This document shows positions 10,894-16,562 of a stretch of 16,562 nucleotides of DNA, piece after piece. This stretch comes from a virus: UHGV virus genome UHGV-1596829; one strand, written 5' to 3'. Position 1 is the stretch's first letter. The number at the start of each line of letters is the position of its first letter. The position numbers and the translations under genes are program-made. The notes under the pieces are model-generated. The model ran no database searches. It saw nothing but the letters and a program-made list of their open reading frames with translations, and was not told where the DNA came from.

Positions 10894-11781
10894 TTACTGC
10901 CCGGCAATAACGATGCCCGTATATTCAGGAACCAGTACAGAGCAACCGTACAGAGTGGTGAAACGCGCAGTGGTTACGCCTTTGATGTGGTCGAAGGCGT
11001 AAGACATGATCAGCGTAGCGCCCTGCTCGGTGGTTGCTGTCATTACCTGTGGACCCTGACCAGTCGGGAACGCCAGTTTGCCGTACATCAGCTCAACAGA
11101 ACCATCAGCCCAGAACAGGTTAGCCGGTGCGGCATTCTTGTTGAGAATGGTAATTGCTGCACCATTTGCCGCGTTAGCATCAACGTTTGCATATGGACGG
11201 CTGGCGACATCTGCGTTGTCAGGCGGCAGAATTTTCGGGGAGATAGTTACTGTCGTTCCGCTTACTGCCAGAACGCGGAATACCTGCGGCTGCCCGGTGG
11301 TGTCTTTGGTGATCTGGTGTACAGAATTCACGCCAGCAATGGTGAACGCATCGCCAACCTGCAAACCTTCAGCAGATACCGTAATGGTCCCCTGCCGGTT
11401 ATCCACTGGCATATCGTTAGCATCTTTCGCTTCAACCTTGTGCGCAGGTTCAGCCGCCAGCGTCAGGGAAGTTGCTGTACCCTTCGGAACACGACCAGAA
11501 ATATCGGTCTTGTAGCTATCGAAGGACGCAACCGGAGGGATCTGCGCTTTTTCGTATGCTGTCAGGGTTGCGCCCTGAGCATAGGCACGGTGACCAAGCT
11601 CGCCAGCAAGGTCTTTGTAGTTGAAGGGGTTCCAGAAAGAGCGGCGGTTGATACCCTGTGGTACACCAATCGCCGTCATGGTGGCATCAATACCTGCCGC
11701 ACAGTTCCACAAATCACGGCCCTGTGAACCAGTGGTTGAGTCAGCCATTGTGATCACGTTAGTAGCACGCTGCGTGACCAT
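10894..11781 (-). pseudogene. Major capsid (coat) protein, P22 gp5 family; 5'-deleted fragment lacking roughly the first 100 codons and its own start/RBS
   Basis: The translation aligns with P22 coat from about residue 100 to the C-terminus (e.g. ...YANVDANAANGAAITILNKNAAPANLFWADGSVEL... versus P22 ...[35 protein letters not shown]...). Upstream in the same frame, coat-like sequence stops near 11810 and stop codons follow. The gene abuts the truncated portal gene with no scaffold gene between. Confidence 0.8.
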
Positions 11782-11786
11782 GGAAA

Positions 11787-13496
11787 TCAGGTCAGAGTCA
11801 ATCTGTGCAGCTTCGGCGTTCCTGGTGGGATAAGTGCCAGCATGGAAAGTAACGACTTAACCGTTGCATCACGGCGAGTAGCGAACGACTGACCGACATC
11901 GACAGTCACTTCATAGTTACCCTGCGAAAGGTCGTTAAGCGCGATAACCTGCCCTGTCTGACGGTCAACCACTTCACCAGTCATCAGCGCCACGTCATCG
12001 CTGCCGTCCTCATTAACGATACGCATCGGCGTATCGCTGCCATAGACTTCACGCGCCATAGAAAGCCACACAACGCCAGCGCGACGCATAGATTTAGCCA
12101 TGTTGTCCATGTAGATATAGGACTGCGTGTCCATCCGGTTAAAAATGCTATCAACGGTATCAGTAGCGACGTTGCTCGGCATGTTCTCAAGCTGCGACGC
12201 ACCTGTAATTTGCTGAATAGCCGTTCCGGTGTACTGCAATAGCCCGGCAAGAGCAGGAGGCATTTGTGTCGGAGGTGTCCAGCCAGCAACCTGAGCTTCT
12301 GAAATGACTGTTCCGTTTTTGTCCTTCTTGCTGGTCATGGGAAGAACTGCAGGTCTTTTCTTATTCCTCTCTGCCCAGTGATTCATTAATGGACCGGGAA
12401 TGAAATCAACATCCACGATAGGAATGCCATCACCGCCCGCCTGAGTAGCGTTATCTGCAATCATGGAAACCATCAGGTTCTCAAGACGCTGTGCATCCAT
12501 CGCTTTTGCTGCGTGGCCTTCGATTCGTTCCTGATTATCAACAAATGAGCGACGCCCATATACCGGGATGAGAGGAATATGTTCGCCCGGAATACGCTTC
12601 GGTTCTTCCAGCCATTCAGCGCCAGACAGAAGGCCGCAATAAACGCGGCGTTTCTTCACCGTTCGCTCGCCAATCAGTTCGAATGCACCATCGGTCAGCT
12701 CGTCGACAATATCTTTGATTTGCTCTTCATCATAGATTGCCGTTTCTCCGCTAACAGGGTTGCGCCACGCCGTGAGCTTCACCTTCTCTATGCGAACTTC
12801 GTAGTAACGTCCAACATAGATGGCGTCAGGCGTTGACCAGTCATACTGAGTACCAGTGTCATCCCGAGAAAGGCTTGCCGCAATGGAATCAGGGTATTCA
12901 GCCTCGAACGCTTTAGGCGTCATGGAGAACATTTCCATAGCCCACATAGCATCAGAGCGGTCATATTGTTTGCTGTCCTGATCGAAGAAGACGCATGTCG
13001 CCGGGTCGTAAACAGGAAGAAGACTGATGCGTCGCTGCTCGTTACTCGGATCCATTTCATCTTCGTAATCAGCACACATGCGGAAACAACCGAACCCGCC
13101 CGTTACAGCATCATCAAATGCGTTATCACACGCTTCACCACCTGATGTTTCCTGATAGTCAGCGCGGAATTTGCCGTTCATCTTTTCGGCTAACGCTTCC
13201 GATGCCTTATCGTCCTTCGGCCTGAATTTAACGCTGATGCGATTCTGTCGATACTCGCCAATGATGCGATCACATTCACGGGCAATCTTATTCAGTTCAA
13301 AGCGCGGATAATGCTCAAACCTGCCTTCATCAAATGAGTAACCAGCGTTTGTGCTGCCTTCCCACTGTGCGCCGGATACCCGGACGAAACGTTGAGCCTC
13401 AATAATCTGCTTACGCATATCCTGCGTTGCTGACCAGGCATTATCAAAGTTGCACAGCACCTTGCGATGCCAGTCAGTCATCTTTTTTTCTGCCAT
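11787..13496 (-). CDS. Portal protein (P22 gp1 family), 3'-truncated; lacks the C-terminal ~130-150 residues
   Basis: 569-aa ORF with portal-core homology (PGEHIPLIPVYG versus P22 AGEHIPIVPVFG; ...LLSMLALIPPGTP versus P22 ...ELLGKTPQGTP). After GTP the frame reads 8 unrelated residues and stops; P22 portal is about 725 aa and Sf6 about 708. Confidence 0.85.
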   Translation of the reverse strand: MAEKKMTDWHRKVLCNFDNAWSATQDMRKQIIEAQRFVRVSGAQWEGSTNAGYSFDEGRFEHYPRFELNKIARECDRIIGEYRQNRISVKFRPKDDKASEALAEKMNGKFRADYQETSGGEACDNAFDDAVTGGFGCFRMCADYEDEMDPSNEQRRISLLPVYDPATCVFFDQDSKQYDRSDAMWAMEMFSMTPKAFEAEYPDSIAASLSRDDTGTQYDWSTPDAIYVGRYYEVRIEKVKLTAWRNPVSGETAIYDEEQIKDIVDELTDGAFELIGERTVKKRRVYCGLLSGAEWLEEPKRIPGEHIPLIPVYGRRSFVDNQERIEGHAAKAMDAQRLENLMVSMIADNATQAGGDGIPIVDVDFIPGPLMNHWAERNKKRPAVLPMTSKKDKNGTVISEAQVAGWTPPTQMPPALAGLLQYTGTAIQQITGASQLENMPSNVATDTVDSIFNRMDTQSYIYMDNMAKSMRRAGVVWLSMAREVYGSDTPMRIVNEDGSDDVALMTGEVVDRQTGQVIALNDLSQGNYEVTVDVGQSFATRRDATVKSLLSMLALIPPGTPKLHRLTLT

Positions 13497-14913: not shown

Positions 14914-15350
14914 TTTCCGAATAGAGTGCTCATCGGTGATGTTTCAATCTGAATTGCGCCGCCGTCTTTGCCTGTTAGCTCGTGATCAACCTTATCGCGC
15001 CATTTATCCTTCTGTCGGTTCTTAAGCCAGAAGATGGCGGCGGTTGTATCAGGCGGGTAATACTTCTCAAGCGGAGTTTCGACAATTCTGTTTTCAATAA
15101 CACGAATATCGATGTCTGGAGCCACGAAGCCCATAGCGCGTTGATAAAGACGATCACTAACTTCTGCATCAGCGACGGCCTTACCCTTTTTTATGGACTC
15201 CGAAAACTTAGGATAATCAAGCTTCCACTTGTTAATAGTTGACTCACTGACTTCAAAGAAATCAGCAAGTTCTGCATCGGTGTAGCCCAGCAAGCACAGT
15301 TTGCGTGCCTGTTCGGCATACGCCTCTTGATACTTCGTTGGGCGCGCCAT
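14910..15350 (-). CDS. Terminase small subunit
   Basis: 146-aa ORF directly upstream of and overlapping TerL; the N-terminal region looks like an HTH DNA-binding domain, and the C-terminus (...GKDGGAIQIETSPMSTLFGK) resembles the Sf6 small terminase tail as I remember it. Confidence 0.85.
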   Translation of the reverse strand: MARPTKYQEAYAEQARKLCLLGYTDAELADFFEVSESTINKWKLDYPKFSESIKKGKAVADAEVSDRLYQRAMGFVAPDIDIRVIENRIVETPLEKYYPPDTTAAIFWLKNRQKDKWRDKVDHELTGKDGGAIQIETSPMSTLFGK

Positions 15351-15352
15351 GT

Positions 15353-15595
15353 TTATGCTCCGGTAGTGAACAGGTCTAACGCTTCCTTCGATTTACGCAC
15401 CGCTTCGATAGTGCGGGTCGTGATATCTGAATTAGCGCCGCCTGACTGGAAGTGAATTTTAAATAGCTCAAGCTTCAGCTCGTCAGTGCCAATGAATTGA
15501 AATGCTTCTTCTGCGGCTGCGTTCTGGTTCATGACCAGTTTGTAAATCTCTAACTGGAATTTCTGTTCTTCAGTCATGGGAATAATCTCTGCCAT
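15353..15595 (-). CDS. Hypothetical 80-aa protein, translationally coupled to the small terminase gene
   Basis: GGAG 7 nt upstream of the ATG; its stop lies 2 nt before the TerS ATG, with the TerS RBS (GGAGCA) inside its 3' end. No recognisable domain. Confidence 0.5.
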   Translation of the reverse strand: MAEIIPMTEEQKFQLEIYKLVMNQNAAAEEAFQFIGTDELKLELFKIHFQSGGANSDITTRTIEAVRKSKEALDLFTTGA

Positions 15596-15842
15596 TGTTG
15601 GCTCCGTTTATCCGTTAAAAGGGATATCAGTTAAGTTATCCCGTGTAGGGTATAAGCCATTGTCGAGACCACTCATTGAATGGCCTCTGCAATAACCGAT
15701 GTCTTTCCATCAGTCCGCCACCACAAAGAATCTTTTTTGCCATAAGGCAGGAGGTTCATCTTTCAGTGGCTGCCAGTGTTATTTCCCCACTTTCTGGCTT
15801 GGGTTGTTTCGCTGTACTGCTGTTAATTAGTGAGTCCGGGGA

Positions 15843-16328
15843 TTATTTCAGTTCGTTACCAGGCATTTCTTTTAGCTCTTTCAAATGACAACGATTGAGA
15901 CTAAACCACTCCCCGTGCGACCTATAGTTGTAATATTTTTGGTGCAATTTGGTTTCAAGCTCTCTATCGGCCGGAATCTTTGCAATTAGATTTAGCTTCC
16001 CACCACTCATGCGAGATATCTCTGAAATTCGTTTATTAACCCTGCGACTAAACCCTATTTTTGTTAGCCCACTATCTTCAGCATGCAGAACGTACACATA
16101 TGATTTTTGCGAAGCACTGGGTGCGACTTTGTTGTAATTAATCATGTCAAACATGAAGCCTTGCTTTAGCAAAGTTTCAAAAAAGATAGAATTAACACAC
16201 CCATTCCTTCTCAGCTCTGCACTTAGCTTGTCAATTTCCTCTATGATGTCGCCAGACCCCTTTCCACTTATAAGAAAATCTTGGTACATGCGACCAATTC
16301 TTGAGGTAATTTCAACAAAGTTATTCAT
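15843..16328 (-). CDS. T5orf172 / MUG113-type GIY-YIG-superfamily domain protein (accessory 'moron' gene)
   Basis: 161 aa. C-terminal half has the T5orf172 signature YVYVLHAEDSGLTKIGFSRRVNKRISEISR...ELETKLHQKYYNYRSHGEWFSL (GIY-like YVYVL, YIG-like KIGFS, conserved R/E, GEWF). AT-rich (about 38% GC) compared with flanking phage genes, preceded upstream by a terminator and followed by a 247-bp spacer. Confidence 0.7.
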   Translation of the reverse strand: MNNFVEITSRIGRMYQDFLISGKGSGDIIEEIDKLSAELRRNGCVNSIFFETLLKQGFMFDMINYNKVAPSASQKSYVYVLHAEDSGLTKIGFSRRVNKRISEISRMSGGKLNLIAKIPADRELETKLHQKYYNYRSHGEWFSLNRCHLKELKEMPGNELK

Positions 16329-16474
16329 AGCGTTTACCTTTTAGAAAGATGAGCCTGTTCGCACAGAAAAGCCGTCCCCGAGATGGTCGCCACCATATAC
16401 GGCAATTCTCAGGCTCAGCTTTCTGAAAGACTCGGGATTGTTACGCGCTGCGATGCGCGGTTTACTGCAGATGT

Positions 16475-16498
16475 AAAAAAGCCCCGCAAATGCGAGGC
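16475..16498 (-). terminator. Rho-independent terminator upstream of the T5orf172 gene
   Basis: On the minus strand: GCCUCGC-AUUU-GCGGGGC (7-bp stem with one G-U pair) followed by U6 (plus A-run 16475-16480). Confidence 0.5.
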
Positions 16499-16562
16499 TA
16501 AATCCTGGTATTTGTAATGATCTGGCTCTTATCTCAACGCAGCCCCTTACCGCGCGCCAGAT

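Follow-up and report, generated by a model that had tools for sequence, protein, structure and literature searches.

The T5orf172 domain was first predicted to bind DNA, as it co-occurs with Bro-N and KilA-N (PMC8096241). Odn (Gp88) of phage ICP1, a small phage-encoded two-domain protein, joins a T5orf172 domain with a Tyr / Lys-x-Gly / Arg / Glu / His pattern to an N-terminal RepA_N DNA-binding domain copied from its target satellite (PMC8263062). Further phage T5orf172 genes, described from a range of phages that includes the ICP1-like and T5-like ones, are regarded as free-standing homing endonucleases; they are sporadic and low in GC, have a terminase gene in 35% of their neighbourhoods, swap domains modularly at recombination boundaries, and in 87% of cases carry CapR/DUF723/DUF4397 zinc-finger or NUMOD/helix-turn-helix (HTH) modules (PMC10448857). 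Here we analyze a member of the T5orf172 family in virus genome UHGV-1596829, a stretch of 16,562 nucleotides referred to below as the window. The gene is an ATG-start open reading frame (ORF) of 161 amino acids (aa) at exactly 15843..16328 on the minus strand, and lies between the lysis genes and those for DUF2560, TerS and TerL (Table 1). With a probability of roughly one half, it is a two-domain T5orf172 endonuclease cassette of the late operon that would be aimed at foreign or rival DNA and would promote its own spread in a homing-like manner.

A P22-like prophage of Escherichia coli JKHS016 matches the window at 100% identity, and segment 15600-16562 of the window is 99.1-99.3% identical to the Salmonella phages epsilon34 (99.3%), g341c and NM-3. 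The gene product corresponds to epsilon34 gp68, g341c gp64 and WP_001058931.1, and is 100% identical in amino acid sequence to its counterparts in epsilon34, g341c and NM-3. RefSeq names epsilon34 gp68 a 'GIY-YIG nuclease family protein', and PHROG 4284, a family of unknown function, matches the entire protein (E 1e-75). The protein has no match in NCBIfam, and the epsilon34 genome paper (PMC2629481) is silent on the gp68 gene. Thus, the gene is an ordinary member of an already catalogued class of phage T5orf172/GIY-YIG nucleases, residing in a known type of mosaic hot spot. A preliminary description, made from the sequence alone, had called it an AT-rich accessory gene of distinct base composition, and this was confirmed: GC content is 38.9% (39.5% at third codon positions) compared to 45.3% for the DUF2560 gene, 47.2% for TerS, 51.1% for TerL and 47.4% for the entire window.

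The T5orf172 signature noticed earlier in the C-terminal half of the protein was upheld by Pfam matches above cut-off to two families of the GIY-YIG clan, MUG113 (PF13455; 50.1 bits versus a cut-off of 22.3, aa 90-154) and T5orf172 (PF10544; 39.2 bits versus 20, aa 77-154). The signature is present in full (Tyr79, Lys90-Ile-Gly92, Arg100, Glu125, His129 and Gly139-Glu-Trp-Phe142). Eight of its residues (Tyr79, Lys90, Gly92, Arg100, Glu125, His129, Glu140 and Trp141) are invariant across a 70-sequence alignment spanning 26-65% identity, and are likewise unchanged in 16 full-length relatives down to about 23% identity. Alignment to Odn by hhalign, with a probability of 91%, equates Tyr79 with Tyr127, Lys90 with Lys138, Arg100 with Arg148, and Glu125 with Glu180. 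When aa 70-161 were modeled alone with AlphaFold2 (AF2), a beta-beta-alpha-beta-alpha core containing the three-stranded sheet of the GIY-YIG fold was obtained at a predicted local distance difference test (pLDDT) score of 95.4, and structure comparison revealed resemblance to the GIY-YIG domains of SLX1, I-TevI, PD-T4-3 and Eco29kI. The fold was seen only with this partial model; a Foldseek search of the PDB with the full-length model returned nothing significant, and searching PDB chain sequences with a family profile produced no matches at E <= 10. The domain is basic, with an isoelectric point (pI) of 9.7. A profile search of 1.8 billion representative proteins recovered 17,130 clusters with a T5orf172 domain, of which only about 15 had the full architecture of the protein described here. 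Collectively, conserved residues and modeled fold indicate that the protein is probably an active T5orf172 nuclease.

Several hallmarks of classical GIY-YIG enzymes are nonetheless missing. The 'YIG' Tyr is replaced by Lys90, no His or Tyr lies four residues past Arg100 in helix 1, and no conserved Asn follows Glu140. Hence, of the catalytic Tyr, Arg, Glu and Asn that the preliminary description proposed to check, Tyr79, Arg100 and Glu125 are intact whereas the Asn is not conserved. The replaced Tyr and unconserved Asn also distinguish the protein from I-TevI and T4 Seg-type enzymes, as do the lack of a linker-joined NUMOD/HTH module and of any match to Pfam GIY-YIG (PF01541) at E <= 1. These absences are not decisive for family membership, because Odn is active without the second Tyr of 'YIG' and the helix-1 His/Tyr (PMC8263062), and the C-terminal Asn motif is likewise missing from the Slx1 family (PMC1564403). 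Odn Glu180, the equivalent of Glu125, has been equated with I-TevI Glu75 and is essential, with the E180A substitution abolishing DNA cleavage both in vitro and in vivo (PMC8263062). The anti-satellite role of Odn has been demonstrated.

In place of the RepA_N domain of Odn, the protein has an acidic helical bundle. The preliminary description had set apart an uncharacterized N-terminal region of about 65 aa, a division that agrees with the AF2 model of the full-length protein (overall pLDDT 86.7), where helices at residues 3-21, 25-41 and 47-68 (helix pLDDT 81-92) precede the nuclease domain. Structural matches of the bundle were confined to generic helical bundles. By sequence, it is homologous to HkbL of phage HK620, a stand-alone protein of 85 aa (PHROG 875), with a BLASTP E value of 5e-12 and 33% identity over 55 aa. 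PHROG 875 matches aa 2-60 of the protein (E 1.4e-6) and, reciprocally, HkbL matches PHROG 4284 (E 4.3e-6). A profile search with the N-terminal domain recovered 144 clusters, mostly stand-alone enterobacterial prophage proteins of about 85 aa that included HK97 p61. The domain has a pI of 5.2, and 11 of 12 family members have an acidic one (pI 4.6-5.5), while in stand-alone HkbL a basic tail takes the position of the nuclease domain. No zinc-finger, NUMOD or HTH DNA-binding domain was detected in the protein by Pfam. Because it is acidic, forms a generic helical bundle, and is homologous to a stand-alone protein with a basic tail, the N-terminal domain is unlikely to read DNA sequence and rather resembles an interaction or oligomerization module. 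The recognition that it and the orphan HkbL/HK97 p61 proteins are one module is somewhat new.

The gene had been proposed to have the autonomous layout of a moron, with its own base composition and an intrinsic terminator upstream. Such a terminator does exist, with a stem at 16499..16480 followed by TTTTTT on the same strand as the gene, and is also annotated in the epsilon34 and HK106 records. It is, however, not specific to an autonomous unit. An alignment of 11 leaders showed that the terminator and the following 150-nucleotide (nt) leader, including the Shine-Dalgarno sequence, are common to alleles encoding Rha, KilA-N and T5orf172 proteins. No sigma-70-like promoter was found on either strand of 15300-16562 by a simple consensus search, which a weak or non-sigma-70 promoter could escape, and no gene-strand terminator was found downstream of the gene. 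The ICP1 record, in contrast, has a promoter directly upstream of the Odn gene. In the epsilon34 record, PR', qut and the slot terminator all lie upstream on the same strand as the gene. With a terminator and leader common to all alleles, the Tad2-like one included, and with junctions at the ATG and stop codons as described below, the gene is therefore an exchangeable coding sequence (CDS) within a Q-dependent late operon rather than a self-contained transcription unit, and the autonomous layout was not borne out.

The leader itself is predicted to be structured. The 186 nt from terminator to start codon have a fold z score of -4.0, and a basal helix pairs CUUUC (16430-16426) with the AAAGG Shine-Dalgarno sequence (16341-16337). 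Across the 11 leaders upstream of Rha, KilA-N and T5orf172 genes, just 10 of which are distinct sequences, 92.3% of cells in the proposed helices were paired, compared to 29-57% in slid-partner controls. Compensatory changes were seen at seven pairs versus 2.6 +/- 1.1 in shuffled alignments (0 of 500 shuffles reached this number). An alternative inner helix, GCCGU/ACGGC, falls where the alignment is out of register. These data are suggestive, not proof, of a hairpin that masks the Shine-Dalgarno sequence. An Rfam scan of 15300-16562 gave only a sub-threshold chance match, leaving the leader without an Rfam family. Terminator and about 150 nt of leader are kept ahead of unrelated cargo in P22-like, HK97-like and unclassified lambdoid phages, and segment 16324-16483 has an 86% match in Stx2a phages, where it overlaps a Rha gene in one annotated record. 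Relative to all other aligned leaders, the window is 2 nt (AG) short at 16329-16334, with a spacing of 8 rather than 10 nt between Shine-Dalgarno sequence and ATG. A covarying leader that covers the ribosome-binding site stands ahead of any cargo in this slot in P22-like, HK97-like and Stx phages alike, which suggests that potentially toxic genes placed here are under a shared translational control.

Comparison of occupants showed that the interval between lysis and terminase genes is a hot spot for accessory cargo, as had been proposed. Other P22-like phages carry in this slot Rha (Sf101; pRha and ORF11CD3 domains), a KilA-N+ORF11CD3 gene followed by HkbL (HK620), KilA-N (a Salmonella phage) or a Tad2-like gene (Kapi1), and gp64 of HK106 is a 31%-identical paralogue of the family in the same position. 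Sf101, HK620, the Salmonella P22-like phage and HK106 match the window in the flanks only. Homology to phages with other alleles stops at 15832-15845, at the stop codon, and restarts at 16324, five nt that include the ATG. In contigs with divergent leaders, the final mismatch lies at -21 from the ATG (-5 in one), and the first mismatch past the stop codon about 13 nt downstream. Rha of P22 (ORF201) and of Sf101 are positional alleles that share the start codon, 3' junction, terminator and leader with the gene but are unrelated in domains, and HkbL/HK97 p61 shares slot, leader and flanks in addition to homology with the N-terminal 68 aa. The gene replaces alternative cassettes rather than adding to an empty site, and no empty slot was seen. 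In this respect, describing it as inserted was imprecise, although the accessory nature of the gene stands. Homologues of 60% identity in three lambdoid phages differing in holin, endolysin, Q and terminase types also lie just past the lysis genes and ahead of the small terminase gene.

The cassette is sporadic: among sequences that match the flanks, it was present in 5 of 233 phage records and in 56 of 2631 E. coli genomes. IMG/VR, searched with an alignment of closer homologues, yielded 30 contigs with the cassette. In these, the CDS is 99.2-100% identical to that of the window, while identity is 66-97% in the lysis flank, 78-99.6% in the leader and 78-99% in the downstream block, with DUF2560 sometimes replaced outright. 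Similarly, comparison with epsilon34 revealed one synonymous difference in the 486-bp CDS versus 11 differences in the adjacent 490-bp left flank. Because the CDS is near-identical while the flanks diverge, one allele has evidently spread recently and horizontally across many phage backgrounds, with breakpoints hugging the CDS. This pattern fits the view of T5orf172 genes as free-standing homing endonucleases, and also ordinary lambdoid mosaicism at gene borders. As expected of a homing gene, the cassette shows presence/absence polymorphism, sporadic occurrence and recent lateral spread, but the polymorphism is one of allele replacement, not of occupied versus empty sites, and the nuclease is not joined to a sequence-specific DNA-binding domain. 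Unlike described T5orf172 homing genes, it keeps to one fixed slot as a replacing allele, where its 60%- and 31%-identical relatives also stay, and encodes a shorter protein. Phages that have the gene and phages that lack it share flanks of up to 98-100% identity, which rules out a homing target in the conserved flanks; any such target would have to be in rival cassettes. A near-identical CDS across divergent backgrounds provides a clean natural case for asking whether a nuclease drives exchange of its own cassette.

From these observations we infer the following scheme, for which the even odds given at the outset apply. The gene is one of several mutually exclusive CDS cassettes of the lambdoid lysis-packaging slot and, having no promoter of its own, would be transcribed late in lytic growth from the Q-antiterminated operon by read-through of the conserved terminator, with translation starting from the structured leader that occludes the ribosome-binding site. 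Its product would be a Mg2+-dependent DNA endonuclease acting against co-infecting or resident phages that carry another slot allele, or against satellites, and the breaks could also promote copying of the gene into new genomes in the style of a homing endonuclease. As the protein has no built-in sequence-reading domain, the N-terminal adaptor may provide targeting or activation, whether it associates with itself or docks to a DNA-binding protein of the Bro-N/KilA-N type. Domain identities, the conserved residues, the cassette junctions, the position in the operon, conservation of the leader and recent horizontal spread are seen in the sequence and models, while DNA cleavage, its target and beneficiary, and the adaptor role are the inferred parts of the scheme.

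Several points weigh against this scheme. The DNA-binding modules of 87% of T5orf172 homing endonucleases are absent from the protein; the gene swaps with other genes instead of invading an empty intergenic site; and a flank-located homing target is excluded. Gene-border exchange is general lambdoid mosaicism and needs no nuclease. The motif departures described above count on the same side, but are shared with Odn and Slx1, as do the limited sensitivity of the promoter search, the lack of an adjacent Bro-N or KilA-N gene in close relatives occupying the enterobacterial slot, and the fact that no published experimental work on the family was found. On its own, the result is a routine refinement of annotation, to a probably active nuclease, expressed from the late operon and swapped as a bare CDS between conserved flanks. 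The HkbL-like adaptor domain, the Bro-N/KilA-N link, the exact cassette boundaries and the conserved leader are modestly new.

Among alternatives, the one to which we give most weight, while still considering it unlikely, is a DNA binder or regulator without catalytic activity, comparable in function to Rha and KilA-N. Its T5orf172 domain would bind DNA while the HkbL-like module contacts a partner, thereby modulating transcription of phage, prophage or host late in infection. The gene is indeed a positional allele of Rha (pRha+ORF11CD3) and KilA-N+ORF11CD3/HkbL with the same leader and junctions, its HkbL-like module occurs without a nuclease domain in HK620 and HK97, and both the basic C-terminal domain and the original prediction of DNA binding (PMC8096241) agree with such a role. 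A pure DNA binder, however, would not be expected to keep all positions aligned with the catalytic residues of Odn and I-TevI invariant, and a common slot need not mean a common function, as it also holds a Tad2-like gene. Moreover, Odn, the only tested T5orf172 protein, is a nuclease (PMC8263062), and CapR, a known regulatory derivative, retains the zinc-finger DNA-binding domain rather than T5orf172 (PMC8096241). Less weight still is given to a structure-specific nuclease serving the phage itself by trimming or debranching concatemers before packaging, in the manner of T4 endonuclease VII or of Slx1 with a helical partner. Slx1 depends on a small helical partner domain. It is, however, a eukaryotic/cellular protein with a RING/zinc domain and only 12-18% sequence identity to the protein described here. 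Lack of a sequence-specific DNA-binding domain, and co-expression of the gene with the terminase genes, which it immediately precedes in all close relatives, would suit this role. The gene is present in only about 2% of related phages and prophages, hence not needed for packaging; RusA is already encoded by the same prophage; and other cargo of the slot is non-packaging.

A further option, raised by the preliminary description, is a defence or superinfection-exclusion moron expressed from the prophage to cut incoming phage DNA. With no promoter-like site from terminator to ATG, a terminator and Shine-Dalgarno-masking leader ahead of it, and no dedicated terminator downstream, the gene should be silent in a lysogen, and we regard this option as improbable despite the accessory, AT-rich character of the gene. 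The only PADLOC matches, PDC-S57 (E 4e-4, aa 74-145) and PDC-M64B (E 0.03), fall on the generic T5orf172 core, and the weak, domain-level likeness to candidate PDC-S57, unaccompanied by an NCBIfam match, was rejected as evidence of a defence system. Least weight of all goes to an inert or decaying passenger derived from a former homing endonuclease. Homing endonucleases often degenerate once fixed, and this prophage copy is defective, with truncated portal and coat genes; against decay, the ORF is intact, the viable phages epsilon34 and g341c encode a 100% identical protein, the sole CDS difference from epsilon34 is synonymous, and family members across the range from 100% to about 23% identity remain full-length with every signature residue in place. 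A passenger of this kind is therefore highly improbable.

Returning to the endonuclease scheme, a candidate for the docking partner emerged from gene neighbourhoods. In each of the six contexts examined, the gene for stand-alone HkbL lies downstream of a KilA-N/ORF11CD3 gene, and the two usually overlap by 4 nt; the gene described here has no such neighbour. Of seven distant full-length relatives (24-38% identity), six abut a Bro-N, KilA-N or P22_AR_N gene (Table 1). By contrast, none of the 20 immediate neighbours at 10 control loci, one holding a family member of 49% identity and the other nine generic T5orf172 genes, was antirepressor-type by Pfam. Fisher's exact test on 6/7 versus 0/10, calculated by hand on this small sample, gave p ~6e-4. 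Pfam was used for the control in place of home-made hidden Markov models of Bro-N, KilA-N, pRha and P22_AR_N, which recovered their own seeds only. No fusion to Bro-N or KilA-N was seen among the ten longer proteins with the most similar T5orf172 domains. The Odn gene of ICP1 (locus L013, 2828-4415) divergently adjoins gp89, a Bro-N/ANT 'antirepressor', echoing the Bro-N adjacency of the HkbL-T5orf172 family. A speculative extension, itself unlikely, is that the HkbL-like module is a docking adaptor coupling an effector, either the T5orf172 nuclease or the basic tail of HkbL, to DNA-binding proteins of the Bro-N, KilA-N or P22_AR_N type. Should this be so, the family would supply the nuclease of a split, two-component DNA-targeting system widespread in temperate phages, and Bro/KilA/Rha proteins, long enigmatic, would gain a defined biochemical role as specificity subunits for a late-expressed nuclease acting against rival phages or satellites. 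The non-random association by itself offers a handle on a very common and poorly understood class of phage genes.

Table 1. Features of the cassette and its surroundings in the window, and antirepressor-type genes adjoining distant full-length relatives at other loci
Feature	Locus	Coordinates	Strand	Evidence
CDS of 161-aa HkbL-like/T5orf172 protein	window	15843..16328	-	ORF, Pfam and PHROG matches, amino acid identity, RefSeq annotation
N-terminal domain (aa 1-68), predicted acidic three-helix bundle, HkbL/HK97 p61 homologue	window	16125..16328	-	AF2, BLASTP, PHROG, profile search
T5orf172/MUG113 (GIY-YIG superfamily) nuclease domain (aa 77-154)	window	15867..16100	-	Pfam, 70-sequence alignment, hhalign, AF2
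Conserved, predicted structured 5' leader of all slot alleles	window	16329..16479	-	Fold z, alignment of 11 leaders, covariation
Intrinsic terminator between lysis cassette and slot	window	16474..16499	-	8-bp stem and T run; kept whichever allele follows
Downstream non-coding block, left recombination flank	window	15596..15842	-	96-98% identical in many P22-like and HK97/HK022-like phages
DUF2560 gene (80 aa), conserved neighbour	window	15353..15595	-	Pfam DUF2560, E 1e-43; beside Rha, KilA-N and T5orf172 alleles
KilA-N gene upstream	L019			Pfam
P22_AR_N gene upstream, 1-nt overlap	L022			Pfam
Bro-N gene downstream, 4-nt overlap	L023, L026			Pfam
KilA-N+P63C gene downstream	L025			Pfam
Bro-N gene downstream	L027			Pfam

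Involvement of the adjacent 80-aa gene, which the preliminary description had suggested as a possible partner in phage exclusion, is ruled out as a dedicated partnership. In epsilon34, Sf101 and HK620, the P22-like phages examined, DUF2560 adjoins the slot gene whether this encodes Rha, KilA-N or T5orf172, and it is absent next to the 60%-identical homologues, where unrelated small genes are found instead. Overall, the proposals of an accessory gene and a hot spot held, whereas those of an autonomous moron and a DUF2560 partnership did not. Between the two genes, the downstream non-coding block has a fold z score of -4.0 on the minus strand, and could serve as a linker for recombination or as an RNA element. 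Part of it is annotated in the epsilon34 record as a remnant of ST64T orf118. Its segment 15600-15833 is 96-98% identical in HK022, HK97, HK106, mEp234, mEpX2, HK544 and many P22-like phages; in most of these the segment has no annotation.

Other occupants of the slot were also surveyed. The Tad2-like (Thoeris anti-defence 2) gene of Kapi1 (locus L006, 1800-2321) matches PF11195 with an E value of 4e-26, and the slot of phage Huey (locus L029, 382-1497) holds two genes annotated as anti-CRISPR; the slot therefore also carries counter-defence cargo. The KilA-N+ORF11CD3/HkbL two-gene module (HK620, L004 1850-2601; HK97, L014 2173-3137; L015-L018, 3007-3764) is a mobile unit, present unchanged amid four different combinations of lysis and terminase modules, with a 4-nt overlap between its genes but a 2-nt gap in HK97. 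Rha inhibits phage growth in hosts defective in integration host factor (IHF). No match to the IHF consensus WATCAANNNNTTR was found in the window, and this link was dropped as a lead for the slot.

Elsewhere in the window, at 10894-13496 on the minus strand, a portal ORF of 569 aa (P22_portal positions 2-523 of 594) abuts a coat ORF of 295 aa (P22_CoatProtein positions 127-423 of 423). The scaffold gene has been lost by deletion, together with the C-terminus of the portal and the N-terminus of the coat protein, such that the prophage copy cannot assemble capsids; RefSeq lists both portal and coat genes as pseudogenes. Beside the tailspike gene, a 198-aa ORF of 33% GC at 604-1200 on the minus strand matches Acyl_transf_3 (positions 2-172 of 326), and is probably a lysogenic-conversion gene of the O-antigen acetyltransferase type or a fragment of one.

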